NCBI GenBank assembly: GCA_964576925.1
Contig: CAZNWJ010000001.1
Coordinates: 91,915 to 155,914 of the forward strand
DNA: 64,000 nucleotides
Reading direction: 5' to 3'
Source: an uncultured Ignavibacteria bacterium
Lineage (GTDB): Bacteria > Zixibacteria > MSB-5A5 > CAIYYT01
This document shows, one piece after another, positions 660 to 37,003 of the stretch (its first letter is position 1; every line of letters starts with the position of its first letter). Both the position numbers and the translations under genes were made by a program. The notes beneath the pieces were generated by a model, which was given only the letters and a program-made list of their open reading frames with translations, did no database searches and was not told the DNA's origin.

Positions 660-685
660 AGCTTTTGCAATCTTGCCGTTACTGC

Positions 686-20173: not shown

Positions 20174-20983
20174 TCAGCCTTCGATGAGCTTTCGGAATGC
20201 TGCCTGGTCGTGTCCTGCGAGCGCGGTTTTCAAGGATTCCAGGAATTCCTCGACCTCATTCGCAGCTACACCGGCGGATGCAAAGTGATTGGCAGCGTCG
20301 GACGCAAATCCCAGCGGCAGTGCCACGGGCGTTTCATAGCGTGCGTTGTGGGCGATAAGCAGGTCAAGGGTGTCTACGGGACGAAAGACAAACTCCGACC
20401 AGTCAAAGTGAGTCTGCCACTTGAGCGGCAAGAGACGGATCAGGGTCTGCAAGTAGTTATCACTGAGCGCAGAGTTGTTCTCGGCGTAGAGCAGAAGTCG
20501 CTCTCCCGCAAGCATACGCGCCAGAACGGGTAAGTGGGTGTCCGGAGACACTGCCAATAGTCCCGACAGCTCCTTGAATGGGTCGGCCGGACCCTCAATG
20601 CGTAGTTCTCTGGCTTGCGAAAGTTCCTCTGACGAACCTGCACTGACAAGTTGACTAGCGACGAGCGCCAAGTTGCCAAGGATCTCCCGATGTTGAGACT
20701 CAGAGAGTATCGCCGAGTGTCTCAGCATGGCCCCCCATCTTCCCGAGAAATCCCTCCCCAGTTGACTGACCCGGGTGATCGCACAAACCGTCTCCGTTCT
20801 AGTACGATTCCAGAGAACCGTGATTGAAGACTTGAATTCCTCGCTGCGGCAGTCACCGAACTCATCGTAACTGGCAATCAGCCACTGCTCGATGTCGCTG
20901 TCGATTCCGGCTGACTTGTAAACGACTTGCTGTGAACCAGGCAGATCGGGAAAGGTGCCGTAAATCAGGTGGTCGAGGAGCAT
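20174..20983 (-). CDS. Hypothetical protein, terminal gene of T6SS-like locus
   Basis: 269 aa, no TM, no family recognised. Starts 7 nt after the stop of the GTPase-membrane gene. Confidence 0.5.
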   Translation of the reverse strand: MLLDHLIYGTFPDLPGSQQVVYKSAGIDSDIEQWLIASYDEFGDCRSEEFKSSITVLWNRTRTETVCAITRVSQLGRDFSGRWGAMLRHSAILSESQHREILGNLALVASQLVSAGSSEELSQARELRIEGPADPFKELSGLLAVSPDTHLPVLARMLAGERLLLYAENNSALSDNYLQTLIRLLPLKWQTHFDWSEFVFRPVDTLDLLIAHNARYETPVALPLGFASDAANHFASAGVAANEVEEFLESLKTALAGHDQAAFRKLIEG

Positions 20984-20989
20984 CAGAAA

Positions 20990-22882
20990 TCAGAGCTTGG
21001 GCACAGAGGGCGGTTTGGGTACATCCCCGGACTTGTACTTGACGATGATGTTATAGTCGCGGCCGAAATCGAGACGAACACCGCCAGCTTGGATCTTTGG
21101 GTAGAAGGTCTCAATCGGGTTTTCGAAGGCGGGTTGTTCGTACATTGTGACCCCGTCTTTGAGATCCAACCACTTGAAGTGAACGGGGCTATTGCCTTTA
21201 CCCGATATCTTCTGGCTGATGGTAGGTGTGCCGCTGTTGTTAGTGAACTCAGTGTACGGGTTGTCGCCGATTTGTGCGACGATTTGGGCACCGTCGCGAA
21301 TTCCAGATATCGTCAATTCGAGTTCAAACTCCTTTTCGGCCACCTCCGCTCCGCCTGATTTGAACTGATCCTGAGCGGCCTCGACTTTCTTGACAAATGC
21401 AGGATCGAGCGTTTCGGCCGGGTGTTTGGCCCAGAATTCCTGCATCCTGGCTTCGAAAGCCGCTTGCTGCTCAGCCGGCGGTAATTTGGCTACATCGTCG
21501 CTGATCTTCTTAAAGTCTTTGGTGGCAGCGTCAGTGGCTTCCTTGAAGGGGGAATCCTCGGGAACGTCCTCAACCATTGGCGGCGCATCGGCCGACACCT
21601 GGGTTTGGACGAACGCTTGGCGCGCCTTGGCATATTCGATGAGCGGCTTGGCGCCAAAGAACTCCATCACAGGGATATGTCCAAGATAGTTCTTATAGTT
21701 GTCCTTCAGGATATTCGCCTGCTTCTGGTCGATCGGCGTCGGACCGCCGCCAAAAACCTGCTCGAACTTGTCTTCGGCGCGACTCAAAGTCCCGTCATAG
21801 ATAAACACCAGGTGATATAGATTGAAAGCGCTGAAGAGCAGCATCCAGGTGATGCTCAAGCCGATGACCCACTTGGTCATTCGCCACCACACCAACTTGC
21901 GTTTGTTAAAGAGAATCCGATTGAATGACCAAATCAGAGGATCCGGTACGCCGGAAGGCGTGATCTCGCGCGGGGGCTGAACGGCACCGGCCTGAACCTT
22001 CTCCAATCCGCCGGTGGCGGAGACAAAGAAGAACTGGAAGTCGAGATTATAGGAGGTCATCGAATCGATAAGGTTAGCCAGGGTACGTGTAACGCGTTCA
22101 CAGGAGCGCGCCCAGACTTCTCCGAAGCGGCGCTGGTTAACCTCGGCCAATCCCTTGATAAACGCCGCGACGCGCTTGCCCTTGTGCATCGCCGCGTTGG
22201 CCGGGATCAGCTCCACCGGATTGGACGGCGAGAAGCCTTCGAGGAAATCGGCCTTGGTAATCACGATGCCAATCGGGACGCGCCGGGGGGCGCAGTCGCG
22301 CAAGTCGTTGATGATCGTTTGGAAGGCGGCGATTTGTTCACGAAGCAGGACGTCGGTATCGAGCACTGAGGCATCAATAAAGAACAACGCTGCACGGGCG
22401 TAGGGGAAGAAGCGGGCGAACTGCTTGCGCAAGCCGCCCGGTTCGGCGATCGAAAGGGTCTCGCCCTTGTAATCAACCGTATAGAACTTGATGCCCTTGC
22501 GGATATTCATGTCGAGACCGAACTTGAGCACGCGCGTTTCCGAGGTCATGGTCGGGAACTTGCGCTCGCCGTCAACTTCAACCTGACGGCCTTCGCGAAT
22601 CTTGATCTGTTTGCCGCGCATCAGATTGTAGTTCTCGATCAGCGCCGCGGCGGTCTCGTTATCGAGCGGCGAAAGCTTGTAGTCGGGATTGCCTTTCAGC
22701 AATTCGTAGAGCACCGAGAAATAGACAGTCTTGCCGGCATTCGAATGTCCAAAGACCAGGACGACATTGTCGTCGTGCTGAAACGGAATGTCGGCAGCGC
22801 CCTTGGCCGGAGGGGGTGTTGCCGAGGCTTTCTTGAATATGCCGAAGGCTTTCTTAATCAGTCCGATCGGATTCAAGCTCAT
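20990..22882 (-). CDS. Membrane-anchored Ras-like small GTPase domain protein with periplasmic C-terminal domain
   Basis: 630 aa. G1 VLVFGHSNAGKT, G3 DYKG, G4 ITKAD, G5 FVSATGG. Single TM WVIGLSITWMLLFSAFNLYHLVFIY around residue 330. About 280-aa C-terminal domain. Start overlaps the upstream gene stop (ATGA). Confidence 0.6.
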   Translation of the reverse strand: MSLNPIGLIKKAFGIFKKASATPPPAKGAADIPFQHDDNVVLVFGHSNAGKTVYFSVLYELLKGNPDYKLSPLDNETAAALIENYNLMRGKQIKIREGRQVEVDGERKFPTMTSETRVLKFGLDMNIRKGIKFYTVDYKGETLSIAEPGGLRKQFARFFPYARAALFFIDASVLDTDVLLREQIAAFQTIINDLRDCAPRRVPIGIVITKADFLEGFSPSNPVELIPANAAMHKGKRVAAFIKGLAEVNQRRFGEVWARSCERVTRTLANLIDSMTSYNLDFQFFFVSATGGLEKVQAGAVQPPREITPSGVPDPLIWSFNRILFNKRKLVWWRMTKWVIGLSITWMLLFSAFNLYHLVFIYDGTLSRAEDKFEQVFGGGPTPIDQKQANILKDNYKNYLGHIPVMEFFGAKPLIEYAKARQAFVQTQVSADAPPMVEDVPEDSPFKEATDAATKDFKKISDDVAKLPPAEQQAAFEARMQEFWAKHPAETLDPAFVKKVEAAQDQFKSGGAEVAEKEFELELTISGIRDGAQIVAQIGDNPYTEFTNNSGTPTISQKISGKGNSPVHFKWLDLKDGVTMYEQPAFENPIETFYPKIQAGGVRLDFGRDYNIIVKYKSGDVPKPPSVPKL

Positions 22883-23787
22883 CGCGTGCCCTCGTGCTTC
22901 TTCGCCAGAAGTTCAGCGGCTTTGTCGCGATGGACTTTCTCCCAAGGTACCCGGATATTCAAAGCCCCGTAGACAAAGGCTGCGCACAGGACCAAGTAGA
23001 CCAGATACACCGGCCAGCGATTCCGGCAGACGTGCAGGACGAACCGCCAGTTGAACACAGAGAAGATTGTATTGCCCAGCGAGCTGAAAAAGTGCTTCAG
23101 AGCGCGCAGGATCGCAGACTCACCCTTGTAGATCTCGTTGGTGCGAAGGTACCAGGCGGCAAAATCATTATGTTCGGAAATGACGCGCAGTTCATCGGTT
23201 GGCGCAAAGGAACGAATCTCGTCCTTGCGGCCGCGCTGGTTGAGCGCCGCGATGTGCAGCATTTTCTTTTGCCAGGAGTCAGAGCGAACGATGCGCGTTG
23301 CCGAGACATTGATCTGGTCGCTTTCGCGGAAGTTGACGGCGATTTGTGCCGTGCGGTGAAGGATTAATGCGCGAAAGTCCCGATCACGCTTGGCGAAGCC
23401 TCGCAGTTTGCCGCCAAAGACGAGCGGAGCGATCGCTTGTTCGACAAACTGACTGTCGTCGACGATGCCGCGCAGTTTCTTGGCCGCCAGGAATGCATTC
23501 TGACATTGTTGCGGCGGGCGACGAACATACCAAAAGTACAACGCCAGGAGATTGGCAACGACCAAGCTGACGGGCTGCGAATTGCGCGGGATCGTGTTGA
23601 TTCGCTGCTTGAGGTGCTCGTCAACGCTGACACCGCCGTCAGCCGACAGATCGAGTCGATCAAGTTCGGCGAAGAAATTCTCGCAGTCGCGGATAAAGGT
23701 ATCCGCCGAGAAGTCCGTTTGCTGACGCTCGTAACGGTTGAGTTGGACAAAAATGGCGTTGGTAAGAGCTTTGAGTTTTTCCGACAT
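22879..23787 (-). CDS. Tail-anchored membrane protein (possible TssL/DotU analogue)
   Basis: 302 aa with a soluble N-terminal ~255 aa, one C-terminal TM (VYLVYLVLCAAFVYGALNI) and a short tail. Topology like TssL, but no sequence motif confirmed. Confidence 0.45.
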   Translation of the reverse strand: MSEKLKALTNAIFVQLNRYERQQTDFSADTFIRDCENFFAELDRLDLSADGGVSVDEHLKQRINTIPRNSQPVSLVVANLLALYFWYVRRPPQQCQNAFLAAKKLRGIVDDSQFVEQAIAPLVFGGKLRGFAKRDRDFRALILHRTAQIAVNFRESDQINVSATRIVRSDSWQKKMLHIAALNQRGRKDEIRSFAPTDELRVISEHNDFAAWYLRTNEIYKGESAILRALKHFFSSLGNTIFSVFNWRFVLHVCRNRWPVYLVYLVLCAAFVYGALNIRVPWEKVHRDKAAELLAKKHEGTR

Positions 23788-23793
23788 CCCTGT

Positions 23794-25266
23794 TTACCGC
23801 GCCCTCGAAAAGATCGAGACGTGATTCATCTTCACCGCTTCCAATGCGGAGCGATCAACATCTCCGTCAATGATAATATTCAGGCGATCGAGCCGCGAGC
23901 TTTTTAGCGGAAAGTACTCATTGGGCTGAATCAGCCAGAAATCGGGATCGCTGACATCCTCGACCGGTTTGCGGGCGACCGATGCTGCAGCGATGTCGTC
24001 GACCTCATTCGCGCCAAGGTAGATGATAACGTTGGCTGCGTACTGAATCGGCAGAACCTTCTTGTGCAACTTAACAATGACATCCTCGGTGCCGCGGGGA
24101 TCGACGCCGTCAATGACGATATGGTGGCGATTATTGCGGAAAGAATACTTGACCGCACCGTGTTGTTGCAGCAGGAAGCGGAAGCCATCGCGTTCGAGCG
24201 AATCACCTGTACGACCGGCCGCTCCCGACGCATAATAGCTTAAGATGGCGCCGACGAACTCAAGCATTCGTTCCGTGTCATTGAAGAACTGCGTCATCTC
24301 TTCGTACCCGTACGAGCGAGTCTGGTAGTCGCGTAACTCGGGCAGAATATTGCCGCCATTGAGCTCGCCTCGATCAGTCTTAATGTGGGCAGTGCGCACG
24401 TATTCGCGCAATTCCGGGTAGATGAGGAAACTCTGCTGGAAACCGCCGACAAAACCGCCAAAATAATTCATCAGGGCGCGGGCGCTGATTCCGCAATGAT
24501 GGTCGAAGATCTGATTGTAATTGAAGCCGAGGCTGTGGAGGAGATTCTCGGTCTGGAGGAAGACGCCACGAATGGTCTCTTCTTCGGCCGCCGCCGGCCG
24601 GCTCTTCACCTTCATCCTCACTTCGGCGATTGCCGCAACCCCGGCGCGTTGGATATTGTCCAATAGCTTGCGAATGTTAGCCATGCGCGAGGTAACTGCC
24701 TTGCCGCAACTCGTCGTCATGACGCTCGGGACAAACGACTCGTCAAGTCGTACATCGTCGCCCTCACGCACGATTTCAGCCACCTGAAGTCCCGCCGCCG
24801 AACCGACGGAATCGGACGCACCGGCACTTAGAAAGTAGCGGGGTACCTGATAGGGCAGGCGGCTTAAGAGTTCTCCCGGCAGTGGGTCGCCAAAGGCAGT
24901 GCGTTCGGTCGGGGAGGAATACAGAAAAATCGGAATTCTCTCACGCTTTTCCTTGGACAAGTCAAAGCTGAGCTCGACGGCCTTGAACTTGCTGTAAGCT
25001 TCATTGACGTTAACGATCGAGCCATTGGGAAGCAAGGCGGCGCACTTGAGTACCGTCACGCTAACGGTGTTGCCGCTGCGCTGAAGCTTGATCTCCAACG
25101 GTTCACTCTTGCTGCCGGCAGCTTTCACCAACCCGTAGCTGGTCGCGAGTGCGGACGCTGTCGCGCGGCTCAGGTTATAGGTGAAGTCAGCTTCCTGGCT
25201 GAAGTGACGGCTGGTAATCAGCATGCCGTCGACCCAATTAACACCCCAGACGTTTAAATCATCCAT
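23794..25266 (-). CDS. tssK: T6SS baseplate protein TssK-like
   Basis: N-terminus MDDLNVWGVNWVDGMLITSRHFSQ parallels the canonical TssK opening (V.W.EGM.L.PQHFQQ). 490 aa is the typical size. Immediately downstream of tssE-F-G. Confidence 0.6.
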   Translation of the reverse strand: MDDLNVWGVNWVDGMLITSRHFSQEADFTYNLSRATASALATSYGLVKAAGSKSEPLEIKLQRSGNTVSVTVLKCAALLPNGSIVNVNEAYSKFKAVELSFDLSKEKRERIPIFLYSSPTERTAFGDPLPGELLSRLPYQVPRYFLSAGASDSVGSAAGLQVAEIVREGDDVRLDESFVPSVMTTSCGKAVTSRMANIRKLLDNIQRAGVAAIAEVRMKVKSRPAAAEEETIRGVFLQTENLLHSLGFNYNQIFDHHCGISARALMNYFGGFVGGFQQSFLIYPELREYVRTAHIKTDRGELNGGNILPELRDYQTRSYGYEEMTQFFNDTERMLEFVGAILSYYASGAAGRTGDSLERDGFRFLLQQHGAVKYSFRNNRHHIVIDGVDPRGTEDVIVKLHKKVLPIQYAANVIIYLGANEVDDIAAASVARKPVEDVSDPDFWLIQPNEYFPLKSSRLDRLNIIIDGDVDRSALEAVKMNHVSIFSRAR

Positions 25267-25307
25267 GTATCAGACCCATACAGAAAATGTGAAAGCAATA
25301 TACCCCG

Positions 25308-26240
25308 CTAAAATGTCTCCCGCAAGTATGTTGAGAAACCGAGAAACGCGCTGTGCGAGTCATCGCCTATGACAAATATCGACAAACCGGGTTGAAATCG
25401 AAACCTAAGTTCGGAGCGCAAGTGTGAGGGCCGAAACAGCGTCAGCAAGTTGTTTGTGATCGTGCGCAAGCGCCCTTCGGGAGCAAATGAGGCAATATCG
25501 TCCTCGAAGAGGCCCTCGACGTTGACGCGAAAGGTTGAGAAGTTCTCTTCAAACTCCTGACCGGGAAAGAAGTCGCGTCCCAGCCGACTATTGAGCTTCC
25601 CCAGCCGGGGCCAGAAGTTATCGGGGATCGCTTCGTGCGCTGCGATGTTTTCTTCAACCGTAACGCGCTTGCCAAGGAACGCCGGCAAGACCTGCTCATA
25701 TAAGAGACGACGGCCGAGGAAGTACGGCGCAAAGAACCGCAGCAATAGCAGGTACTTGCGATCCTCCCGCGCCAGAGTCGGCAGGTCGCCCCCCAGGCTT
25801 TCCCAATAAAGCAATTCGGTATCGTTATCGTCGATGCAAAAAAGCATCCGTAGGCGAAGGAGGTAGTGGGCAATCCAATGGCGATAAGTGATCGTATCGA
25901 AGGCGCTCCAGAATTCGAGATAGCGATCCTCCCAGACTCCGGGGTGATGGTCCGATTCTTCCAGTTGCTCAACGAAGAACGACTGTGGAAAGTAGTTCTT
26001 AAAACACGGAAGGTAGGCGAAGACTACGCGCTCATCGCGTCGATCGACCCGAGACGTCACCGTGCGGATCGTCTCAATATCCGAGAAAAACCCGCCGTGG
26101 GCTTCAAGGCTTACGAACCAGAACTCGCTTGGCTCGATGCCCAGGGTATGAAGCAGCAAGCTGAATTCGGAGAGCCGGGTACGCTCGCGAATGCGATGCA
26201 CGGAAGTGATTTGCCCGGTCTTCATTGGCTCGCCGCCCAC
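25308..26240 (-). CDS. tssG: T6SS baseplate protein TssG-like
   Basis: 310 aa. Position and size after tssF, overlapping its 3' end. Weak N-terminal resemblance to TssG. Assignment mainly by synteny. Confidence 0.5.
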   Translation of the reverse strand: MGGEPMKTGQITSVHRIRERTRLSEFSLLLHTLGIEPSEFWFVSLEAHGGFFSDIETIRTVTSRVDRRDERVVFAYLPCFKNYFPQSFFVEQLEESDHHPGVWEDRYLEFWSAFDTITYRHWIAHYLLRLRMLFCIDDNDTELLYWESLGGDLPTLAREDRKYLLLLRFFAPYFLGRRLLYEQVLPAFLGKRVTVEENIAAHEAIPDNFWPRLGKLNSRLGRDFFPGQEFEENFSTFRVNVEGLFEDDIASFAPEGRLRTITNNLLTLFRPSHLRSELRFRFQPGLSIFVIGDDSHSAFLGFSTYLRETF

Positions 26241-27997
26241 TGCGCGTTCAGGTGGAGATTGAGTGGCGTGTAGCTGTCCAGGTATTGGCTAAGGCGCTGC
26301 AAGAGATACGTCTGCTCTTCTGCGGTTACCTTAGCATCGGCTCTGAGGGCGACTTCGACCGTTACGGAAGGCAAGAGCCCTCCGACCGATCGGATCACGC
26401 TACGCCTGGCTCTGGCGGTTGCGATGCGGCTGTCAAAGCTCCTCGCGAGGTACTCGATCTCGCCTTCGGAAAGGGCGACGCCATGATTACGCAGGAAGAA
26501 GCCGGTCATACGCCTGACTTCTTCATCCGACTTGGCATCCGAGCCGCCGGACGAACTGACGAGATTTCGGGGCGAGTGCAATTGCGGATGATCGCGGGTC
26601 AGTTTCAGCGGGGTGTCTGCCCCAATGCCGTTGCCGTCGGCTCCCTCGGTCAATGAATATTGGACGACTACGAAGTCGGGCGGCTCCTTCCCTGTGCTCT
26701 CGAAGTTAATCGCGACCTTGACTTCACCTTCTTCCTCGAGAATGTGGTACTTGTAGAGATTGGTGAACGACGTCAGGTCCAAGTGGTTCACATACTCCTG
26801 GTCCCTCGAGTCCCAGACCCGATCGATCGAAAACAATTTGCGTGTCGGATCTTCTTTCTGATCCTGATACTCAAAGAGATTCACTTCGAGAGCCGGCTGT
26901 CCCATCGTGTACTTGTTCAGATGAGACCGTCGCCGATTGATGAGAAGCAGCGTATTGGTGTCAAAGTGAATAAAGCGCCGGAGATCGCCGACTTTCTCAT
27001 CGCGTGCCAGGTCAATCCGCAGCCATATTCTTGGCGAAGCCAACTTGGAAAAATCGAGGTGCGCGAATTTGGTTTTGACAGGATCTGGAATCGGCGTTTT
27101 CACCGCACTGGCGAGGGCAGTTCCGGGAATGACGGCAAAGTTCTTGGCTGGTGCCAGGTAGTGTTTGAAATGCCAATGAAGCTTCCCGGAAGTCAGAAAA
27201 TCGCTGCTGTAGAGCCGACTTTGGAAATTGGTCTCGACTTCCAACTCACGGATATCCAGATGCTTGAAGATCTCGAGGCGATGTTGGTATTCACCTGGTT
27301 TGAAAGGCGCCGCCTGCCCATCTCCGACTACGCGCCAGTCAACCCAATTCAGCATCCGTGAGGAATCGGCGTCTGGTCCGAGATATAGCGGCAGATCGTC
27401 GATTTCTGTGAGAGGCAGCCCGGATTGGATTCCGATCCAAATCGTCCCTCCCAGCGGCGGCGGAGCGTTGCGTTTCATCGTACGATATGCAGGCGAATCG
27501 AGCGACTCTTCCCATTTGTCCGCTTCCGGGGCCAATACCTTCAACACACGAAAGTACTCGCCGGAGGTAAACAGCACGAGATCGGCGTGTACATCGAGGA
27601 TTTCCTGGGCGTAAAGCGGGAAGAAAGTATATTCGCGGGGGAAAGCTCCCCCCAGCGTACAAGCAAATTCAACATCGGTGTCGATTCGCGCCCGTTTGTC
27701 GGTGCAACGACAAGAGAGCATCGTAAAGGCGGGAACCGGGCGTCGAATGCCAGTGACGAAGAAGTTGCCGATCAGTGCGTCGATTACGTCCTGACCGGCC
27801 CGCTTGAGTTTGTCCTCCGTGCTGGTGCTGTGGAAGGCGAACGCCTTGAGCATCAGCAGCAGGGCCGGATCCATCTGCTTTTCGCCGGAAGGCACCTGAT
27901 AGCCCCAGAACTTGAGGCGATCGATCATTTCCTGATAAGCGCGCTCTTCGCGGTCGGTCCATTTTTCGGCCACGGTGCTTCCTCTCAAATCTCCCAC
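26222..27997 (-). CDS. tssF: T6SS baseplate protein TssF-like
   Basis: 591 aa. N-terminal LLLMLKAFAFHSTSTEDKL...LIGNFFVTGIRRPVPAFTMLS parallels the TssF LLEGFAFL...YLRPIPSM region. Overlaps tssE by 13 nt. Confidence 0.6.
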   Translation of the reverse strand: MGDLRGSTVAEKWTDREERAYQEMIDRLKFWGYQVPSGEKQMDPALLLMLKAFAFHSTSTEDKLKRAGQDVIDALIGNFFVTGIRRPVPAFTMLSCRCTDKRARIDTDVEFACTLGGAFPREYTFFPLYAQEILDVHADLVLFTSGEYFRVLKVLAPEADKWEESLDSPAYRTMKRNAPPPLGGTIWIGIQSGLPLTEIDDLPLYLGPDADSSRMLNWVDWRVVGDGQAAPFKPGEYQHRLEIFKHLDIRELEVETNFQSRLYSSDFLTSGKLHWHFKHYLAPAKNFAVIPGTALASAVKTPIPDPVKTKFAHLDFSKLASPRIWLRIDLARDEKVGDLRRFIHFDTNTLLLINRRRSHLNKYTMGQPALEVNLFEYQDQKEDPTRKLFSIDRVWDSRDQEYVNHLDLTSFTNLYKYHILEEEGEVKVAINFESTGKEPPDFVVVQYSLTEGADGNGIGADTPLKLTRDHPQLHSPRNLVSSSGGSDAKSDEEVRRMTGFFLRNHGVALSEGEIEYLARSFDSRIATARARRSVIRSVGGLLPSVTVEVALRADAKVTAEEQTYLLQRLSQYLDSYTPLNLHLNAQWAASQ

Positions 27998-28329
27998 GAC
28001 AAGTCAAATCGCTGATTACCGGGGCCGGTACCCGAAACCCGGCACACAAATGTGGCGGTCGGCGAAGAGACGTTATCGGAGATCGCTACGTTAACAACGA
28101 GGCCGAGATAGCGCCTAAACTGCGCCAGGACATGATTGCGCACCTCGACCTTTAAGTCATCATGATGTTCGGGGGTGAATAAAGAGGACCGACAGCCAAA
28201 TTCCGGATCGGGTCGATAGCTTCCCAATTCAGTTTCAAGCAAAAAACGCGCAAACTCGGCCACACCTCCGGTGCGGACGAAGCGCGTCTCCCTTAGTTCG
28301 ACTGGAGTTCGAATTGCCTCATTGGCCAT
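27985..28329 (-). CDS. tssE: T6SS baseplate TssE-like (gp25/GPW lysozyme-like)
   Basis: 114 aa, gp25-like size. Sits between vgrG and tssF as in many T6SS loci. Sequence resemblance modest. Confidence 0.55.
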   Translation of the reverse strand: MANEAIRTPVELRETRFVRTGGVAEFARFLLETELGSYRPDPEFGCRSSLFTPEHHDDLKVEVRNHVLAQFRRYLGLVVNVAISDNVSSPTATFVCRVSGTGPGNQRFDLSWEI

Positions 28330-28332
28330 GTG

Positions 28333-30195: not shown

Positions 30196-30284
30196 CGTCG
30201 CCTCGTCTGCTACTCTACCTTAAGGAAGCGGGAAGGGAGAACTTCTCTCGCCTTCCCGCAGTGTCCCAACTATCGTCGGTGGGC

Positions 30285-30698
30285 TTATTTGCCCTTCCAG
30301 TCCTTCTTGTACTCGGTGCCGTTGAGGTCCACCAGCTCCGCCGAGATTTCGAAGTACTCGTACATCTGCTCGTTCGGAGCCGATGCGGTCGAGGGAACGT
30401 GCTCTTCATAGTGGGTGATGAAACCGTTCTCCCACTTCAGAACCTTTAGATCCTTCTTGAGGTTCGGATCCTTAAAGGTGATCTGGCCGGCTTTGCGGTT
30501 GACCTGGGACGAATCGAACGCCCACTTGGCGATACCGACGTTTTCGTCCGATTCCCGGCTGATCTTGATCTTCAGACCGGTCGGCACCGAACTCGGCTTG
30601 CCGTCCGCGAGATCGTGGGGGGTGAAGAGTTCATAGCTCACCGAGTGAACCTTGTCGAACTTTTCGCCATCGACCAGCAGTTCTACTTCCTGTGCCAT
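30285..30698 (-). CDS. hcp: Hcp-like inner tube protein
   Basis: 137 aa, strong SD (GCAGGAGGAAATGAACAATG). Position between tssC and vgrG. C-terminal ...YKKDWKG recalls the Hcp C-terminal Trp. Shorter than canonical Hcp (~160 aa). Confidence 0.5.
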   Translation of the reverse strand: MAQEVELLVDGEKFDKVHSVSYELFTPHDLADGKPSSVPTGLKIKISRESDENVGIAKWAFDSSQVNRKAGQITFKDPNLKKDLKVLKWENGFITHYEEHVPSTASAPNEQMYEYFEISAELVDLNGTEYKKDWKGK

Positions 30699-30807
30699 TG
30701 TTCATTTCCTCCTGCGGAATGTTACGTTTATCTCTGACTTTCGTTCTTACTTACGAACCTTACTAACTTCATCCCAACTGTCGCCGGATTCGATTGAAGG
30801 TTCGGAA

Positions 30808-32208
30808 TTATTTCACGGCCGTCTGGCCGGAGTCGTCCACCATGGCCTCCAGCTTCACGACGTACTGCTTGATCGGCGTTTTGGTATTCAAGGCGACTTC
30901 CAGCAACATCTGCTGGTTTTCGATCATCTCGTTCGTCGCGATCACGTTGCAGGTGAAGCCGTTAATGACCTTATTGCGCTGTAACAGGCTCAGGAACTTG
31001 TTCAGGTCCCCGTCGATCGACTTCTTCAGCTTGTCGTCGAAGCCCTTGTAAACCTGTTGATTGAGGTAATTACGCATGGTCTTGTAGATGTAGTCGTAAG
31101 TCCGCTTGATCGTGTAGTTGCGGAACTTGGCGTCCTTGGACAGCGTGTCCGCGCCCATGGCCACGACATCACCAACATCGCCCTGCCAATTGAGCACGCA
31201 GTTGATGCCCTTCTCGTTGAGCTTCGTGTTCTTGGCTTCGTTGAGCTTGATCCGGGTGCTTTGCACGCCGCCCAATTTGCCATTGACCTTGCCTGCCGAG
31301 GGCGCCTGGATGCCAATATCGTTGTCGTTCTTATAGATCAATCCGGCCACCAGGGATGACGGCGGAATCCAGAGCGGATCCTTGTCAAAGCGGCTTTCAG
31401 GCTTGTCGGCTTTGACGTAGTTGCCGAAGACCGAGATATATGCCTTGTACTCGTCGTTGGAGCGCAACGAATCGTAAGACGGATCGTCGAGTTCCTCAGA
31501 CAGCTCTTCGTAGCTGTTGAAGTGCTTGAAATCGGTGAGCACGTGGAGCTTGCTCGGCATCCCCATGTCGCGAGCGACGGTGTCGATATCCTTGACGCTT
31601 CCAAGATAGCCGGGAATGCAGCAGAGCGAGTAGCAGTTCGTGATGTCATAGAGGCCGTAGATGTCGTGCACCTGCCGATTGACATACTCGAACTTCTCGC
31701 GGTCATTCGGATCAGTAAGGTCGGCGATTCCGACATTCGCGAAATAAGCGTAAATCTCGGAATCGGGCCGCGCCATCGCGTTCTGGAAGAACAAATCGAT
31801 GCCGCGATACGCAACCTCGATCGGGCGCACCGTATCGTGGATGCTTTTCATGTTCTCGCCGAGGTTCTTGTCAGCCTCAGCGATCATGTTGTCGAGTTTG
31901 TCCTTGAATTCGTCGGACGTGACGTCTCCGGCCGAGATTAATTCCGACCAAACAGAGAGCCGCTGCCTGAGCTGCTTGCGGCGGTCCTTGAATTCATCCG
32001 AAGACAAGAACTTATTGAATGATTCATTCTTGGGATCCAGGAACTTGGCGCCTTCAACGTAGACGCCGTCCTGGCTGGTGAAGTGAGACAAGTGATCCTT
32101 GATCACCTCGTAGCCGACAAAACCGGCACCGAGGATATCTTTGAGATCAGTTTTCTCTTTGACTTTTACTTCAGCCTGTTGCTGTGGGTCTTTTTCCTGA
32201 TCAGCCAT
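30808..32208 (-). CDS. tssC: T6SS contractile sheath large subunit TssC-like
   Basis: 466 aa immediately after the tssB-like gene (18-nt gap). Size and placement typical of TssC/VipB. Confidence 0.65.
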   Translation of the reverse strand: MADQEKDPQQQAEVKVKEKTDLKDILGAGFVGYEVIKDHLSHFTSQDGVYVEGAKFLDPKNESFNKFLSSDEFKDRRKQLRQRLSVWSELISAGDVTSDEFKDKLDNMIAEADKNLGENMKSIHDTVRPIEVAYRGIDLFFQNAMARPDSEIYAYFANVGIADLTDPNDREKFEYVNRQVHDIYGLYDITNCYSLCCIPGYLGSVKDIDTVARDMGMPSKLHVLTDFKHFNSYEELSEELDDPSYDSLRSNDEYKAYISVFGNYVKADKPESRFDKDPLWIPPSSLVAGLIYKNDNDIGIQAPSAGKVNGKLGGVQSTRIKLNEAKNTKLNEKGINCVLNWQGDVGDVVAMGADTLSKDAKFRNYTIKRTYDYIYKTMRNYLNQQVYKGFDDKLKKSIDGDLNKFLSLLQRNKVINGFTCNVIATNEMIENQQMLLEVALNTKTPIKQYVVKLEAMVDDSGQTAVK

Positions 32209-32226
32209 GATTACCTCTTCCCCGGT

Positions 32227-32682
32227 TTACAGTTTCTCGATATAGGACTTAATGACATTCAAGAACTCTTCTTTCTTGGCCGGATTTGACAATTCCTTTT
32301 TCAGCTTGGAATTGGGCTTGTCCAGCAGGTTCTTGAAGTTGCGCAGGATTTCGACCTCGTTGTACTTTTCCCAGAGGTATTGGTTCTTCTTGATGATTTC
32401 CATCGAACCGAAATCCTTCATTGAATTGAACTCCAGCTCGACCGACTCTTCGGACCCGTCCTGCTTATTGATCGTGACTTCCTGGGTCGGCCGAAACGTT
32501 GCGAACACTTCTTTGAGGTTTTTGCAGCGGGTCAACTCGGGTTCGGTCTCTTCGCGCGAGTTCAGCTTGGTCAGATAGACCATTTTGTTCGACGGCAAGA
32601 GATCGACGGGAATCGAATCGCTTTTCTCCTTGTACTCGGTGGTACCGATGTGGGGGGCGGCAATTCGGAACTGGTCTGCCAT
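32227..32682 (-). CDS. tssB: T6SS contractile sheath small subunit TssB-like
   Basis: 151 aa. NLKEVFATFRPTQEVTINKQDGSEESVELEFNSMKDFGSMEIIKK parallels the VipA/TssB segment (..DEVFEH..P...L.V..DGS..V.L.F.SMDDF.P). Confidence 0.65.
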   Translation of the reverse strand: MADQFRIAAPHIGTTEYKEKSDSIPVDLLPSNKMVYLTKLNSREETEPELTRCKNLKEVFATFRPTQEVTINKQDGSEESVELEFNSMKDFGSMEIIKKNQYLWEKYNEVEILRNFKNLLDKPNSKLKKELSNPAKKEEFLNVIKSYIEKL

Positions 32683-32703
32683 GGTATCCTCCTGATAGTA
32701 TCT

Positions 32704-33837
32704 CTATAACTTGACGATTTCAAAGTTGTCGCCATTAAGGCGGACTTCGACGCGCGAGCCTTCCGGGAAGCGCCCGTCGATGATGCCGATGGAAAGCGGG
32801 TTGAGAATTTCCTTTTCGATAACCCGCTGCAGCGGCCGCGCGCCCATTTCAAAGTTGTAACCGCGTTCGGCCAGGGCCTTCATAGCTTCCGCCGTACACG
32901 AGATCGTCATCTTTTGATCTTTGAGGATCTTGTTGATGACTTTGAGCTGAATATTGACGATGGCGTTGATGCCTTTCTCCGTTAGCGGCCGGAAGATGAT
33001 CCATTCCAGGCGGTTGAGAAACTCCGGCCGGAACTTCGCTTTCAGAATCTTCATCATCTCGTCGCGATCGACCGGCTGGTTCTCGCGATAGCAATCCAGG
33101 ATGTAGTGCGAACCGAAATTGGAAGTCAGGATCACGATCGTATTCGTAAAATCGATGGTATTGCCCTGACCGTCGGTCAAGCGACCGTCGTCCAGTAGTT
33201 GCAGCATGATGTTGAAGACATCGGCATCGGCCTTTTCGACTTCGTCGAAGAGCACGACGGAATAGGGATTGCGTTTGACTTTCTCGGTCAACAAACCGCC
33301 CGCTTCATAGCCGACATACCCAGGTGGAGCACCAATCAGCTTGGCAACGGAGTGTTTCTCCATGTACTCTGACATATCGAAGCGGATCATGTTCTTTTCG
33401 TCGTTGAAAAGAAACTCGGCAAGAGTTTTGGCCAATTCCGTCTTACCTGTGCCCGTAGACCCCAGGAACAGGAAGGAGCCGATCGGCCGGTTGTGCCGCT
33501 TGATGCCGGAACGGGAACGGCGCACGGCTTCGCAGATCGTCTTAATCGCGTCCTCCTGGTCGATAACTCGTTTGCCGAGGTGATCTTCCAGGTTGAGAAG
33601 TTTAGCTTTTTCATCCTCCATCATGCGCGACACCGGGATCTTGGTCCAGCGGGAGATGACGTAGGCGACATCTTCCGTGCCAAGAGTCTGTTTCTCAGCG
33701 GTCACGAACTTTTCCAAACGATCGATCTTTTCGAGGTTTTCGCGAAATCGCGTGATCTGGCTCTTGTCTTCGCTCATTCTGCTTTCCGTTAATACCGCTT
33801 GGCGGTCTCGCAAACTGTCCGTGTTTTGGATCGACAT
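32704..33837 (-). CDS. ClpV/ClpB-family AAA+ ATPase, C-terminal fragment (M-domain remainder + D2)
   Basis: D2 Walker A GSTGTGKTELAK, sensor/arginine region, ...VISRWTKIPVSRMMEDEKAKLLNLEDHLGKRVIDQEDAI. Lacks Clp_N and D1, which are encoded by the adjacent upstream ORF in a different frame. Confidence 0.8.
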   Translation of the reverse strand: MSIQNTDSLRDRQAVLTESRMSEDKSQITRFRENLEKIDRLEKFVTAEKQTLGTEDVAYVISRWTKIPVSRMMEDEKAKLLNLEDHLGKRVIDQEDAIKTICEAVRRSRSGIKRHNRPIGSFLFLGSTGTGKTELAKTLAEFLFNDEKNMIRFDMSEYMEKHSVAKLIGAPPGYVGYEAGGLLTEKVKRNPYSVVLFDEVEKADADVFNIMLQLLDDGRLTDGQGNTIDFTNTIVILTSNFGSHYILDCYRENQPVDRDEMMKILKAKFRPEFLNRLEWIIFRPLTEKGINAIVNIQLKVINKILKDQKMTISCTAEAMKALAERGYNFEMGARPLQRVIEKEILNPLSIGIIDGRFPEGSRVEVRLNGDNFEIVKL

Positions 33838-33878
33838 GGTAGCCGACCCGATTTTTACACTCTACTCAAACCCAAGGT

Positions 33879-35294
33879 TCAAACGCGGCCCACCCAAAGG
33901 GAAAAAGTCTCTTCGAATCTGTCGTTAAACTCGCTCAGTCGCTTCTGCACATCTTCCGGAATAGCACTGTCATCCGTCGCGGCTGATTGCGCCCCCAACT
34001 TACCCTTGATTTCCTCCGCCAGCTTTCGCAGTTCCGGAATCTCGTTCTTCGCGCGCGTGCAATTGAGGCGAAACGAGGCCGCGGCTTCGTCGAGCAGGTC
34101 GATCGCCTTATCCGGTAGGAAGCGGTCGCCGATGTAACGCTGAGACAAGCGAATTGCCTCGTCAACGACGCCATCCGGGATATCGAGATTGTGATGCTTG
34201 CCGTAGGTGTCGCGTACGCCGGAAAGGATCTCCTGTGCTTCATTGAACGTCGGCTCTTCGACCATGACGCGCTGGAAGCGCCGGTCGAGCGCTTTGTCCT
34301 TTTCGATATACTTCCTGTACTCTTCTAGAGTCGTCGCCCCAATGACCTTGAATGTTCCGCGGGCCAGAGCTGGTTTGATCAAGTTAGCAGCATCCATGCC
34401 ACCCGAAGGGTTGCCGGCGCCGACCAAGGTGTGGACCTCGTCGATATAGAGAATCAGGTTGCCTTTGCCCTTGGACAGGCGTGAGATAAGCGCATTGAAG
34501 CGCTCCTCGAATTCGCCTTTGTACTTGGCCCCTGCTACCAGCTGTCCCAGATCAAGCTGCAGGAGCACCGAATCCCAAAGCTCCGGGGTGGTCTGCTTGT
34601 TAATTATCTGCAAAGCCAGGCCTTCGACAAGAGCCGACTTGCCCACCCCCGGAGGGCCGACCAGAATCGGATTGTTCTTACGACGTCGGATCAAGACGCG
34701 CGAGATGTTATAGATGTCTTCCTTGCGGCCGAAGAAATTGTCGTATTCGCCGCGGCGGGCACGCTCGCACATATCGACGCAGTACTTGATGCCTTCGGCG
34801 CCGGCGACAGCCTCTTCGCCATCGGTGACTGTTTGACCGCCGGCAATCGACTGGACAACTTTCATCTCCGCATTGGCATCGATGATCTTGCCCTCGTCGA
34901 AGTCGAGGCGGCGGCGAATCTGCTCTGACAAAGGAGAGTCCGGTGAAACCAACACCATCAAGATGTGCTCGGGGCGCACCTCGGAGTCCGAGTATTTCTC
35001 CGCCTTGTTGCCTGCTGCGACCAACAGCGATTGCAGGGCAGGTGACGCGGAGGGGCGGACTTCATCGGCAGCAGACTTACCGAATTTGGAAAGCTCGTCG
35101 GCAAGAAGCGCCTCAAAGTACTCGGGTTTCTTGCCGAGTTGCTTGAGAATTGCCGCCAGTTCTCCCTCTTCGTCGCGCAGCAAGGTGAGAAAGAGGTGCT
35201 GCGGGCGAATCTCCGAATGAAAATAGCTTTTAGCCAGTTCCTGCGAACGCCGAATGGCATTTTGCAGGGTCGTCGAGAACGATCCTAAATCCAT
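33879..35294 (-). CDS. ClpV/ClpB-family AAA+ ATPase, N-terminal fragment (Clp_N + D1 + start of M-domain)
   Basis: Clp_N repeats (IRPQHLFLTLL...), D1 Walker A ILVGPPGVGKSALVEG, Walker B LILYIDEVH. Ends within coiled-coil ...EFNDRFEETFSLWVGRV, 41 nt before the ATG of the C-terminal fragment. Confidence 0.8.
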   Translation of the reverse strand: MDLGSFSTTLQNAIRRSQELAKSYFHSEIRPQHLFLTLLRDEEGELAAILKQLGKKPEYFEALLADELSKFGKSAADEVRPSASPALQSLLVAAGNKAEKYSDSEVRPEHILMVLVSPDSPLSEQIRRRLDFDEGKIIDANAEMKVVQSIAGGQTVTDGEEAVAGAEGIKYCVDMCERARRGEYDNFFGRKEDIYNISRVLIRRRKNNPILVGPPGVGKSALVEGLALQIINKQTTPELWDSVLLQLDLGQLVAGAKYKGEFEERFNALISRLSKGKGNLILYIDEVHTLVGAGNPSGGMDAANLIKPALARGTFKVIGATTLEEYRKYIEKDKALDRRFQRVMVEEPTFNEAQEILSGVRDTYGKHHNLDIPDGVVDEAIRLSQRYIGDRFLPDKAIDLLDEAAASFRLNCTRAKNEIPELRKLAEEIKGKLGAQSAATDDSAIPEDVQKRLSEFNDRFEETFSLWVGRV

Positions 35295-35506
35295 ACACTC
35301 TTCACGTTGGAGGTGCGAAGTTTCCCGCGATAGATGCGCTAAACTTCAAGGTTACTATCTATCTTCTTCCCTGTCAAGGCGATAATTCGCCGCCGGCGCT
35401 TCCAGCAGCGGGCCGCCTGTCAAAATGGCTCTACTAAGTCCCACCCTGGACGTCATTGGTTGATCTTCGGTTCGATTCAGCGGGCACGTCACTCTTGTTC
35501 CTGCCC

Positions 35507-36541
35507 TTAGCCGCCGAACAGGCGATCAATAAAAGTTTTTTTACGCTTCCGCTCAACTTGAAATGTGCCGGCGCGAAGAAAATCAGCAATGGGCCGCGTC
35601 CGATCTTCGTAGCCGGCATCGCCGAGATAGCTTGTGAGCTTGTCTTCGACGTCCGTGGCGCTGGCTGGCCGCTTTTCCGGGTCGAACGCTACGCAGCCGC
35701 GGAGAATCTGACCGAAGTCCTTGAGCAGCGAACGCGCCAGCGGGTCGCGATATTCCGGATAGAGCGCCTCTATACGGAAAGGGCGGTTTTCCCGAACGTT
35801 TTGCCGAGCTTCGAAAATTGTCTGTCCCTGATATGGGTGGCACGCTGTCGCAGCCTCCAGCATGATCAGCCCCAACGCATAGACGTCAGAGCGGCGATCG
35901 GCGTAGCCCGCTTTCAGCAGTTGTTCCGGTGATTCATAAGTTTGCGGAAGATATGGCAACTCAAGCTGCCGCCGGTCAGCAAAGGCTCTTAGCTGATTCG
36001 TGTCACAATCGGCAAGTAGGACCCGGCCATCCGGCGTCAAGAGGATATTCTCCGGACTCAGATTCCGGTGCAGAGGGATCAGGTTTCCGAGGCCGGGAGA
36101 GGGGCGGAGCCCGTGAATCTGCAGCAGGGCCGTTACGGCTCCCAGTGCGATGAGAGCGACCAGGTCGGGGTGAAGCGGCGCAAAGCGCTCGATCACGACG
36201 CGCAGGCTCGTTGCCTCGATATATTCGAACTCGAAAAAGCGAATTCCGGCGTGCTGTCCGGCGGCGTAATAGCGCAGGAGACGATCGCCGCGGAACTCCT
36301 GAAGAAGTCGCGACAGGCGGTCGAAGGTCTCGCCGATTTCAGGGTGCTGCGACAGGCGGCGCCGGAGCACCTTCAGACGCACCGCAGAATTGTCGGAGAG
36401 GCGCCGCGCCCGGAAGCAGTATGTCGTCGGTCCCTCGCCGATCGGATTCTTGTCGATCGCGTAGTTTTGAAACCGCTCCGGCAGGTCGGGATGGTCGAGG
36501 GCGGCAAAGTGAGCGTAGCGTGCTTTATTATGGGTCGACAT
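35507..36541 (-). CDS. Ser/Thr protein kinase-like protein with degenerate catalytic loop (PpkA-like, probable pseudokinase)
   Basis: Kinase fold motifs: Gly loop IGEGPTTY, VRLKVL (Lys), HRNLSPENILL in place of HRDLKPEN, DCD in place of DFG, SPE for APE. Confidence 0.7.
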   Translation of the reverse strand: MSTHNKARYAHFAALDHPDLPERFQNYAIDKNPIGEGPTTYCFRARRLSDNSAVRLKVLRRRLSQHPEIGETFDRLSRLLQEFRGDRLLRYYAAGQHAGIRFFEFEYIEATSLRVVIERFAPLHPDLVALIALGAVTALLQIHGLRPSPGLGNLIPLHRNLSPENILLTPDGRVLLADCDTNQLRAFADRRQLELPYLPQTYESPEQLLKAGYADRRSDVYALGLIMLEAATACHPYQGQTIFEARQNVRENRPFRIEALYPEYRDPLARSLLKDFGQILRGCVAFDPEKRPASATDVEDKLTSYLGDAGYEDRTRPIADFLRAGTFQVERKRKKTFIDRLFGG

Positions 36542-36634
36542 CGTCCATGATGCGCCTGGCGCACCATCCAGCTTGGTTACCTGAGTCGGTGCCGCAACAC
36601 AGGTCCGTTACGGCGTCAGTAGAGCGAAATGTGC

Positions 36635-37003
36635 TTAAAGCCCGAAACTGGGATTGGCGCCGGGAATTCGTTCGTCTTCTACCGTGAAGCGAATTACCGT
36701 CTGCAGGCCGACCTTGATCAGGTCGTTGCTCCGAAGCAACGTTTGCTCGGAGCGGACGCCGTTAATCGTGGAGCCGTTGCGTGACAAGTTCATAAAAAGA
36801 AAGGTATCGCCACGTCGAATCACCGCAAAATGCTCGCGGCTGATGGCAGCGTCCTCATCGGAGAGTACAAAATCGCAACGGTCTCCGGAACGCCCGACGC
36901 GGAACTGGACTGCCTCGGAGGAGAACTGCCGCCCGCGATCCGGACCTTCTTCGACTATCAATAACGGCCTGAGTGCCATAGTCATAGATAATAAGTCGGA
37001 CAC
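36635..37003 (-). CDS. FHA domain protein
   Basis: 122 aa. GRSGDRCDFVLSDEDAAISREHFAVIRRGDTFLFMNLSRNGSTING contains the conserved FHA G-R...S-R-H...N-GT core. Confidence 0.75.
   Translation of the reverse strand: MSDLLSMTMALRPLLIVEEGPDRGRQFSSEAVQFRVGRSGDRCDFVLSDEDAAISREHFAVIRRGDTFLFMNLSRNGSTINGVRSEQTLLRSNDLIKVGLQTVIRFTVEDERIPGANPSFGL

Follow-up and report, generated by a model that had tools for sequence, protein, structure and literature searches.

Type VI secretion systems (T6SS) share a conserved phage-like machine, and their subtypes are defined largely by the way in which this machine is fixed in the cell envelope. The characterised anchors of classical T6SSs are only TssJLM and, since 2024, TssNQOPR. 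The latter belongs to T6SS-iii, for which a survey of more than 20,000 complete genomes found carriers in Bacteroidota only (Bongiovanni et al., 2024, PMC10781749). Its membrane complex consists of TssN, TssQ, TssO, and TssP, plus TssR, with tssN and tssP being nearly ubiquitous: TssN has five N-terminal transmembrane (TM) helices and a C-terminal cytoplasmic domain, TssQ, TssO, and TssP have one N-terminal TM helix each and are devoid of a cytoplasmic enzyme domain, and TssR is a lipoprotein (PMC10781749). Here, we analyze a T6SS gene cluster which is located in a window of 64,000 nt (the window being the whole stretch of DNA analyzed) from an uncultured bacterium of the Zixibacteria lineage (contig CAZNWJ010000001.1). 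With a probability of about two in three, we consider this cluster to represent a distinct T6SS subtype, in which a contractile core related to T6SS-iii is combined with a two-gene, GTPase-based envelope anchor, the GTPase probably being related to TssM.

A second group of described systems bears on the anchor. GAP1 is the described partner of the DO-GTPases and is typically encoded just downstream of them, and in some DO-GTPases beta-sandwich domains come after a C-terminal TM helix (Kaur, Burroughs, Iyer, and Aravind, 2020, PMC7159879). The term "T6SS" is absent from that publication, which has one unexamined mention of "type VI". A literature search on T6SS in Zixibacteria, on T6SS-linked GTPase anchors, and on new T6SS subtypes returned no description of the system reported here.

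The open reading frame (ORF) listing of the window gives 15 consecutive genes in the same direction on the minus strand, from 37003 down to 20174. The original prediction, which was made from the sequence and its ORFs, had counted thirteen while naming 15 products; its product list and boundaries proved correct, as did its statement that the genes are tightly packed, co-oriented, and partly overlapping. Intergenic distances range from -19 to +212 nt, the widest (212 nt) separating the kinase gene from the first ClpV gene. An ATGA at 22879-22882 combines the start codon of the GTPase gene with the stop codon of the gene for the 302-aa protein, and further overlaps occur between the genes for TssE and TssF and for TssF and TssG. 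In the order of transcription, the genes are:

36635..37003, minus strand: forkhead-associated (FHA) domain protein, 122 aa, first gene of the cluster (PF00498, 49 bits; Yop-YscD_cpl, 45.5 bits)
35507..36541, minus strand: Ser/Thr-kinase-fold protein, 344 aa, probable pseudokinase (PF00069, 74 bits)
33879..35294, minus strand: ClpV/TssH, N-terminal half, 471 aa (Clp_N, AAA, and AAA_lid_9; first AAA+ ring)
32704..33837, minus strand: ClpV/TssH, C-terminal half, 377 aa (AAA_2, 226 bits; ClpB_D2-small, 81 bits; second AAA+ ring)
32227..32682, minus strand: TssB, small sheath subunit, 151 aa (PF05591, 24.9 bits; TIGR03358, E 5e-5)
30808..32208, minus strand: TssC, large sheath subunit of the T6SS-iii type, 466 aa (PF17541, 162 bits, and Phage_sheath_1C)
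30285..30698, minus strand: Hcp/TssD, tube protein of the T6SS-iii type, 137 aa (PF17642, 74 bits, full length)
28333..30195, minus strand: VgrG/TssI, spike, 620 aa (Phage_base_V, 91 bits; Phage_GPD, 60 bits; NF033848 VgrG_rel, E 1e-55)
27985..28329, minus strand: TssE, gp25-like baseplate wedge protein, 114 aa (family profile vs. gp25)
26222..27997, minus strand: TssF, baseplate wedge protein, 591 aa as listed with a GTG start (TIGR02243, E 2e-6; family profile)
25308..26240, minus strand: TssG, baseplate protein, 310 aa (PF06996, 36.6 bits; TIGR03347, E 2e-8)
23794..25266, minus strand: TssK, baseplate protein, 490 aa (TIGR03353, E 1e-9, N-terminal 200 residues; family profile)
22879..23787, minus strand: tail-anchored all-helical protein, 302 aa, candidate inner-membrane docking subunit
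20990..22882, minus strand: GTPase-TM-periplasmic protein, 630 aa, candidate minimal TssM-like membrane-complex subunit
20174..20983, minus strand: GAP1-N2 domain protein, 269 aa, cytoplasmic; final gene of the cluster (PF20013, family-level matches)

The contractile core and its affinity to T6SS-iii

The curated cut-offs of Pfam and NCBIfam were applied to all 15 proteins, and family profiles were built from the orthologues in related loci. Nine proteins exceed the curated cut-offs (FHA protein, kinase-fold protein, both ClpV halves, TssB, TssC, Hcp, VgrG, and TssG). TssB barely passes PF05591 (24.9 bits vs. a cut-off of 24), which is also carried by its orthologues, and TssG passes PF06996 (36.6 bits vs. 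a cut-off of 24.6). TssE, TssF, and TssK stay below the curated cut-offs as single sequences and are recognized through their family profiles. The TssE sequence has no match on its own; its family profile matches gp25 (2e-12) and TssE (6gj1_D, 0.005), and its orthologues in related loci carry PF04965. When compared using hhalign, the TssF profile aligns with TssF from the T6SS-iii of Hymenobacter (probability 96.5%, E 7e-10) and weakly with TssF from E. coli (probability 43.6%, E 2.4e-4), the matches among PDB profiles being baseplate-J (0.002) and TssF (0.015). The TssK profile aligns with TssK from E. coli (probability 93%, E 2.8e-7), and TssK chains are its top matches among PDB profiles. 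Support from Pfam, NCBIfam, or profiles was obtained for all ten core proteins. By these assignments, the locus encodes a complete contractile T6SS core (sheath, tube, spike, the TssE/F/G/K baseplate, and ClpV), as had been claimed originally. The same prediction had made this conditional on the sheath and baseplate assignments passing their HMM (hidden Markov model) thresholds: TssB and TssC do so, TssF and TssK fail as single sequences, and the orthologue profiles settle the latter two.

TssC and Hcp are assigned by their Pfam families (PF17541 and PF17642) to the sheath and tube types of Bacteroidota. A tblastn search with TssC against a plasmid collection returned as full-length matches only DUF5458 proteins from Bacteroidota (24-29% identity), and no T6SS-i sheath was matched there although 430 of the plasmids encode TssM. 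The model for VipB/TssC-type sheaths, TIGR03355, gives 15.9 bits on TssC (cut-off 271), and a word-index protein search reached only the family of TssC itself. Because of the membership in PF17541 and PF17642 and the restriction of full-length TssC matches to Bacteroidota, we consider the contractile core to be a distant sister of the Bacteroidota T6SS-iii core and not of T6SS-i type, to the extent that sequence families can tell. This agrees with the earlier view that the layout is not that of T6SS-i, given the TIGR03355 score and the lack of TssJ, TssL, TssM, and TssA at curated thresholds, and that it resembles T6SS-iii, for which the comparisons of TssC and TssF speak.

The C-terminal domain of TssC resembles Afp3 and phage sheaths in a single-sequence PDB search, which matched Afp3, PVC, and phage sheaths and not VipB/TssC. 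Together with the baseplate-J matches of TssF, this could be taken to indicate an extracellular contractile injection system (eCIS) or a phage-tail-like particle which is not anchored to the cell. We consider this extremely unlikely. To our knowledge, TssB (VipA), ClpV, TssK, and TssG are T6SS hallmarks which are absent from eCIS; all four are present here, and two conserved membrane proteins are encoded in the same operon. No tape-measure, tail-fibre, cap, or terminator gene was found in or beside the locus. Because a tape measure, tail fibre, and terminator are lacking while TssB, TssK, and ClpV are present, the locus is attributed to a T6SS and not to an eCIS, and the T6SS assignment holds against the eCIS or phage-tail scenario which the original prediction had raised. 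According to the literature, T6SS i-iii lack a spike plug, a tail fibre, and a tape measure.

The membrane proteins encoded downstream of tssK

Directly after tssK, the locus encodes a tail-anchored protein, a protein with an NTPase domain, a TM helix, and a periplasmic part, and a small cytoplasmic protein. The tail-anchored protein (302 aa) has a cytoplasmic helical domain of ~250 aa, one C-terminal TM helix (~258-281), and a short periplasmic helix; its topology and gene position are TssL-like. For the 630-aa protein, the predicted structure (predicted local distance difference test score, pLDDT, of 78) shows a G-domain (~39-300), a long TM-containing helix (313-377), periplasmic helices (386-516), and a beta-sandwich (518-620). 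Its GTPase motifs are GHSNAGKT (G1), DYKGE (G3), TKADFLEGF (G4), and SATG (G5). Across the GTPase family, G1, G3 (DYKG), G4 (TKAD), G5 (SATG), and the candidate switch-I residue Thr77 are invariant, and the GTP-binding site is predicted to be intact. A structure comparison, which had been suggested for the uncharacterised terminal proteins, was informative in part: the fold of the G-domain is Rag/Arf/MglA-like, while fold searches with the whole model returned generic GTPases only and left the periplasmic domain unclassified.

The distribution of these two genes was analyzed across related genomes. A degenerate-pattern scan of GTDB species representatives yielded 135 stretches which encode GTPase relatives, 80 of which were kept as loci. 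Synteny was counted over 82 related loci of up to 21 kb each (related loci carry L numbers here), using six-frame ORFs and iterated HMMs which were derived from the window proteins. The gene for the 302-aa protein adjoins the GTPase gene in 77 of the 82 loci, and tssK was detected in 74. The order TssB-TssC-Hcp-VgrG-TssE-TssF-TssG-TssK-302aa-GTPase is complete in about 52 of the 82, most of the others being cut by contig ends, and it persists at 27-32% GTPase identity. Comparative synteny had been proposed as a check, and the order of core, 302-aa protein, and GTPase is thus well conserved. Metagenome-assembled genomes (MAGs) with the same order are labelled Zixibacteria, Krumholzibacteriota, Latescibacterota, Calditrichota, and "FCB group". 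Among named relatives, Zixibacteria MAGs are closest to the locus. The word-index search found ~30 homologues of the 630-aa protein; the homologues of this protein and of the 302-aa protein are all unnamed or hypothetical proteins from the same phyla. Because the gene order is conserved across distant clades at 27-32% GTPase identity, the 302-aa protein and the GTPase are considered integral components of this T6SS type.

Taxonomic labels are uneven. Many of the carrier MAGs (L003-L082) are titled "uncultured Ignavibacteria/Ignavibacteriales", and near-identical proteins have been deposited as Zixibacteria.

Every locus of the GTPase family for which upstream sequence is available carries T6SS-related genes, except L038. 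This locus, from a complete Zixibacteria chromosome (CP070766.1), has the GTPase gene without upstream T6SS genes, and a masked stretch of 100 bases (9796-9895) directly precedes it; either a splitting of the locus or a join made in assembly may be the cause. Another Zixibacteria chromosome (CP070742.1; L066, 5834-14432) encodes a paralogous GTPase of 688 aa, which exceeds the DO-GTPase2 cut-off (29.9 bits). Genes for an outer-membrane beta-barrel/PEGA protein and for two PD40 (TolB-like) proteins come before it, and those for a PAAR protein and a peptidoglycan-binding protein after it. This context fits a putative envelope- and spike-related role of the GTPase.

None of the 15 proteins reaches a curated Pfam or NCBIfam cut-off for TssJ, TssL, TssM, or TssA, the sole trace being a sub-threshold match of the GTPase to IcmF-related_N, and profiles for TssJ, TssL, and TagF match neither in the window nor in the 82 related loci. 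An ORF of TssM size elsewhere in the window (1080 aa) is isoleucyl-tRNA synthetase. Canonical tssJ, tssL, tssM, and tssA might reside in another part of the genome, which would make this an ordinary split T6SS with the three terminal genes as accessory regulators. The window covers 64 kb of an 893-kb contig, and in some bacteria T6SS genes are spread over several loci (PMC10781749). We nevertheless consider such a split unlikely. The core is not of T6SS-i type, Bacteroidota with T6SS-iii never carry a T6SS-i-like membrane complex (PMC10781749), and the window and all 82 loci lack TssJ, TssL, TssM, and TagF matches beyond the sub-threshold signal of the GTPase to the TssM N-domain. In addition, two membrane proteins which are so strictly conserved right behind tssK are more readily understood as structural subunits than as regulators.

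Zixibacteria belong to the Fibrobacterota-Chlorobiota-Bacteroidota (FCB) superphylum, as do Bacteroidota. This host affinity and the T6SS-iii type of sheath, tube, and TssF would also be compatible with a Bacteroidota-type T6SS-iii whose TssN/O/P/Q/R complex has diverged past sequence recognition, the more so as tssN adjoins tssK in Bacteroidota and TssO and TssQ are often missed by HMMs (PMC10781749). The comparison with the Bacteroidota membrane complex covered the NCBIfam TssN model, TssN from Hymenobacter and its two neighbours (using hhalign), and the topologies of TssN/Q/O/P/R. The NCBIfam model, which is used in the Hymenobacter annotation, gave no match, and the hhalign probabilities were below 1%, so that an identity of the terminal proteins with TssN, TssO, or TssP was rejected. 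The topology of the 302-aa protein is reversed with respect to TssN, a GTPase forms the cytoplasmic part of the 630-aa protein, and TM helices are missing from the 269-aa protein; the word "GTPase" is absent from PMC10781749. Such a diverged complex thus appears very unlikely. We infer that the module of 302-aa protein and GTPase replaces TssJ-L-M or TssN-Q-O-P-R as the envelope anchor.

The last gene of the cluster was one of three for which the original prediction could offer no identity. The 269-aa protein scores 22.9 bits against GAP1-N2 (PF20013; cut-off 24), and 15 of the 16 members of its family match this domain (best 1e-6), with a weak GAP1-M match in one of the 16. It is devoid of TM segments, and its family has 14 representatives among 1.84 billion proteins. 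The gene is confined to the near clade of the window and to a small intermediate clade (L002/L037/L073), where it follows the GTPase gene (17 loci in total). We assign the protein, at the level of its family, as a clade-specific GAP1-N2 domain protein which is outside the conserved core and which is a putative partner or regulator of the GTPase. The earlier label of this protein as unknown thus needs revision. None of the three terminal proteins belongs to the Bacteroidota TssN/O/P/Q/R set.

In the major clade, a conserved signal-peptide protein of ~175 aa takes the position of the GAP1-N2 protein, its gene following that of the GTPase directly (L021, 12139-12657, and 51 other loci). It has a C-terminal hydrophobic stretch and no Pfam match, is unrelated to the GAP1-N2 protein, and has no homologue in the window. 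It is possibly a periplasmic or outer-membrane partner; an identity with TssJ was rejected, as the search found no similarity. Further downstream in this clade, a conserved opposite-strand trio is found (L021, 12749-16717; L025, 12843-16829; L063, 12750-16794), which codes for a ~515-aa protein (two of three examined examples have a Laminin_G_3 domain at the C-terminus), an unknown ~376-aa protein, and a ~450-aa tetratricopeptide repeat protein.

Per-member Pfam scans over 15 members of the GTPase family matched DO-GTPase2 in all 15 (best E 6.4e-7), DO-GTPase1 in 12 (best E 0.0016), IcmF-related_N in 10 (best E 0.003), and Gtr1_RagA in eight (best E 0.0033). The window protein itself scores 25.1 bits against DO-GTPase2 (PF19993; cut-off 27) and 12.6 bits against IcmF-related_N (PF14331; cut-off 25), the latter being reached by genuine TssMs with 147-296 bits. 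The terminal genes might therefore constitute a separate DO-GTPase/GAP1-N2 conflict (defence) system beside a T6SS whose membrane complex is located elsewhere. This would account for the DO-GTPase2 and GAP1-N2 matches throughout the two families, and both a GAP1 gene downstream of a DO-GTPase gene and DO-GTPases with a TM helix and beta-sandwich are described (PMC7159879). Yet in almost all loci, distant clades included, the genes for the GTPase and the 302-aa protein come after tssK, in this cluster their start and stop codons overlap, and T6SS-related genes are present in every GTPase locus with upstream sequence, apart from the one with the masked stretch. The GAP1-N2 gene occurs in only 17 loci and is replaced elsewhere by that of an unrelated secreted protein. 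Components that usually mark GAP1-N2 systems (an FNIII-repeat protein, tubulin, a vWA protein, a variable effector array) are missing, and the homologues of the 302-aa protein and the GTPase are all unnamed proteins from the same phyla. An independent defence system is thus quite unlikely, and we retain the interpretation of the two membrane proteins as parts of the T6SS anchor.

For a comparison with TssM, eight TssM genes, taken from E. coli Sakai and from seven plasmids, were analyzed along with the genes around them. The gene order in these T6SS-i loci is tssK-tssL-tssM-tagF. The GTPase family aligns with the TssM profile over 204 columns (hhalign, E 2.5e-4, probability 43%). The alignment starts at the Walker B strand, includes PxxxVxTKAD[LF]LxGF and the SA(T) motif, and extends into the TM helix; under a permissive hhalign setting, Walker A and DxxG also align. 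The TKAD[LF]LxGF motif after a PV/PI strand is common to the GTPase family and TssM. The E-values of the controls with the GTPase family were 0.0017 (Arf1), 0.009 (H-Ras), 0.048 (RhoA), and 0.13 (reversed TssM). When the TssM N-terminal HMM was searched against 9,761 ORFs from all loci and the window, a set which includes ClpV, ABC, and ParA-type P-loop proteins, the best 14 matches were all members of the GTPase family, the window protein included. E. coli TssM in turn weakly matches DO-GTPase2. The layouts agree in the NTPase domain, TM helix, periplasmic helices, and C-terminal beta domain; the N-terminal TM hairpin and the IcmF_C domains are missing. These signals are individually sub-threshold and together consistent, and we give about even odds to a specific homology between the G-domain and the TssM NTPase domain. 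A functional analogy of the two proteins is rated higher than their homology. In our preferred reading, the GTPase protein is a remote, minimal relative of TssM/IcmF, in which a P-loop NTPase likewise precedes a TM helix, and at the same time a putative member of the DO-GTPase2-like group. The claim that no TssM is recognizable thus stands at curated thresholds, and has to be qualified by a 630-aa protein which is TssM-like in position, architecture, and weak IcmF/TssM N-domain signals. Similarly, the suggestion of a new subtype or anchoring solution is borne out with respect to the subtype, while the anchor may be a diverged TssL/TssM-type pair instead of a wholly new solution.

Several observations weigh against our interpretation of the locus. 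The similarity to TssM is weak (probability 43%, single HMM E-values of 0.004-0.08, and 12.6 bits with Pfam), and it could reflect mere shared TRAFAC GTPase ancestry, since Arf1 alone gives an E-value of 0.0017. None of the methods applied revealed a resemblance between the 302-aa protein and TssL/DotU, and TagF was rejected as a candidate for the 269-aa protein, hhalign and HMM search being negative. The TM segment of the GTPase is only moderately hydrophobic and stays under the Kyte-Doolittle cut-off of 1.6. The locus encodes no outer-membrane or lipoprotein component by which the outer membrane could be passed, and neither a PAAR protein nor an evident effector was found in the 64-kb window. 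Finally, the source organisms of this T6SS type are all uncultured.

The divided ClpV, the FHA and kinase-fold proteins, and the surroundings

ClpV is encoded by two genes (32704-35294, minus strand), as had been noted. On TIGR03345, the N-terminal half covers residues 3-458 (E 5.6e-111) and the C-terminal half residues 484-836. The first gene ends with a stop codon and the second begins 41 nt later, inside the region of the ClpB middle domain. The division is retained in L083 (6942-9514), L084 (6931-9507), and L085: the halves have 473 and 357 aa in the close relatives and 491 and 366 aa in the distant clade, where stop and start codons overlap. In the relatives, the gene for the C-terminal half is always located directly upstream of tssB. 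Because the same division is found in near and distant clades, it is not considered a frameshift; the two-piece ClpV is a conserved trait and not a pseudogene, and a two-chain Hsp100-type ATPase is predicted.

In the kinase-fold protein, the catalytic loop reads LHRNLSPEN, with HRD changed to HRN and the catalytic Asp gone; DFG is changed to DCD, and a GxGxxG loop is absent. As the original prediction of a degenerate kinase implied, the protein is probably a pseudokinase, which is paired with the FHA protein. The TagH model matches the latter over its FHA domain only. A phosphatase domain was not detected by Pfam in any of the 15 cluster proteins. The further claim of a regulatory module of the threonine phosphorylation pathway (PpkA/PppA/Fha) is doubtful: FHA is present, and an active Hanks kinase and a PP2C phosphatase are not found in the locus.

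The FHA and kinase genes precede ClpV in the near clade (L084/L085); in the distant locus L083 they are not upstream of ClpV. There, co-oriented genes upstream of ClpV (1-6728) code for a C-terminally extended PAAR-like protein, for a DcrB-like protein, and for a number of large proteins of unknown type. These likely represent effector or immunity cargo and have no equivalent in the window.

Upstream of 37003, the window encodes an Mrp/NUBPL ATPase followed by ordinary housekeeping genes. The Mrp/NUBPL gene beside the FHA gene is common to the window and to L084/L085, in which the cluster lies ~3.4 kb from dnaA and dnaN (1-5070), near the presumed replication origin. Downstream of 20174 are genes for an RNA recognition motif (RRM) protein, a sigma/anti-sigma pair of the extracytoplasmic function (ECF) type, a secreted protein, and MiaB; housekeeping genes make up what else the window contains. 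The RRM-type RNA-binding protein is small, has a glycine/arginine-rich tail, and is encoded directly downstream of the cluster (19510-19854, minus strand). The ECF-type sigma factor (179 aa) and the putative anti-sigma membrane protein (232 aa), which were assigned by reading the sequences, are encoded ~1.3 kb downstream (17677-18911, minus strand) and are possible candidate regulators of the cluster. Neither a tRNA gene nor a break in composition marks the locus within the window.

Proposed function and comparison with known systems

In the proposed mechanism, the 302-aa protein and the GTPase would offer their cytoplasmic domains as docking sites to the TssK face of the baseplate, and the periplasmic helical and beta-sandwich part of the GTPase protein would reach the cell wall or the outer membrane. 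The nucleotide state of the G-domain may gate assembly or firing; as a parallel, the Walker A motif of Agrobacterium TssM reportedly plays a role with phospho-TssL and Fha. In the clade of the window, the GAP1-N2 protein may modulate this nucleotide state, and the FHA protein and the pseudokinase may act as scaffold or sensor, possibly reading the state of the GTPase. After contraction, the two ClpV chains would together disassemble and recycle the sheath.

A more far-reaching version, which is tentative and which we consider rather unlikely, is that the GTPase is a true G-protein switch and the core of a minimal membrane complex, representing an ancestral or stripped-down TssM/IcmF, with firing being gated by GAP1-N2 in this clade. 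If the GTPase were such a minimal TssM, it would link the evolution of T6SS-i and T6SS-iii, Bacteroidota having swapped a TssL/TssM-type anchor for TssNQOPR, and DO-GTPase/GAP1 conflict systems and the T6SS anchor would share a common GTPase module. A real link to TssM would also provide a natural minimal TssM, which could help to understand the role of the TssM NTPase domain and to define the indispensable parts of the membrane complex. With its conserved two-piece ClpV, the system provides a natural experiment on the coupling of AAA+ rings, and as a whole it suggests contact-dependent antagonism by Zixibacteria and relatives in sediments and soils. A GTPase-based minimal anchor, a iii-type core outside Bacteroidota, and a conserved division of ClpV would be surprising to specialists.

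Among described GTPases, those of the MglA type and the Rag/Arf-like ones differ from the 630-aa protein, which continues into a TM helix and a periplasmic domain and has a helical insert between G4 and G5; a Roadblock/MglB partner is not found. DO-GTPase/GAP1-N2 systems share with the locus the best Pfam match (DO-GTPase2), the downstream GAP1-N2 gene, and the GTPase-TM-beta-sandwich architecture. The locus differs from them in that its pair is part of a T6SS operon, the GAP1-M and GAP1-C domains are essentially missing, and a second GTPase, zinc ribbon, FNIII-repeat protein, tubulin/vWA module, and variable effectors are lacking.

With T6SS-i, the locus shares the mirrored order tssK-tssL-tssM-tagF and the collinearity of Walker A, DxxG, and TKAD[LF]LxGF with TssM, followed by a TM helix; FHA and kinase-fold genes are likewise present in many T6SS-i clusters. 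In contrast to TssM of T6SS-i (~1150 aa), the GTPase protein has 630 aa and lacks a TM hairpin at the N-terminus as well as the greater part of the periplasmic domain. A TssJ lipoprotein is missing, the 302-aa and 269-aa proteins have no detectable similarity to TssL/DotU or TagF, and sheath and tube are of another type.

The closest counterpart is T6SS-iii (Russell et al., 2014; Bongiovanni et al., 2024), with which the locus shares TssC and Hcp of PF17541 and PF17642, the closest TssF, a host from the FCB superphylum, and the lack of a recognizable TssJ or TssA and, at curated thresholds, of TssL and TssM. It differs in that TssN/Q/O/P/R are not matched, their place being taken by the tail-anchored helical protein and the GTPase-TM-periplasmic protein. 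ClpV is encoded by two genes here, in contrast to a single 849-aa protein gene in the T6SS-iii of Hymenobacter, gene order is strictly conserved, and the host phyla are outside Bacteroidota. Next to TssJLM and TssNQOPR, the locus and its relatives would represent a third arrangement, which is widespread in uncultured FCB phyla.

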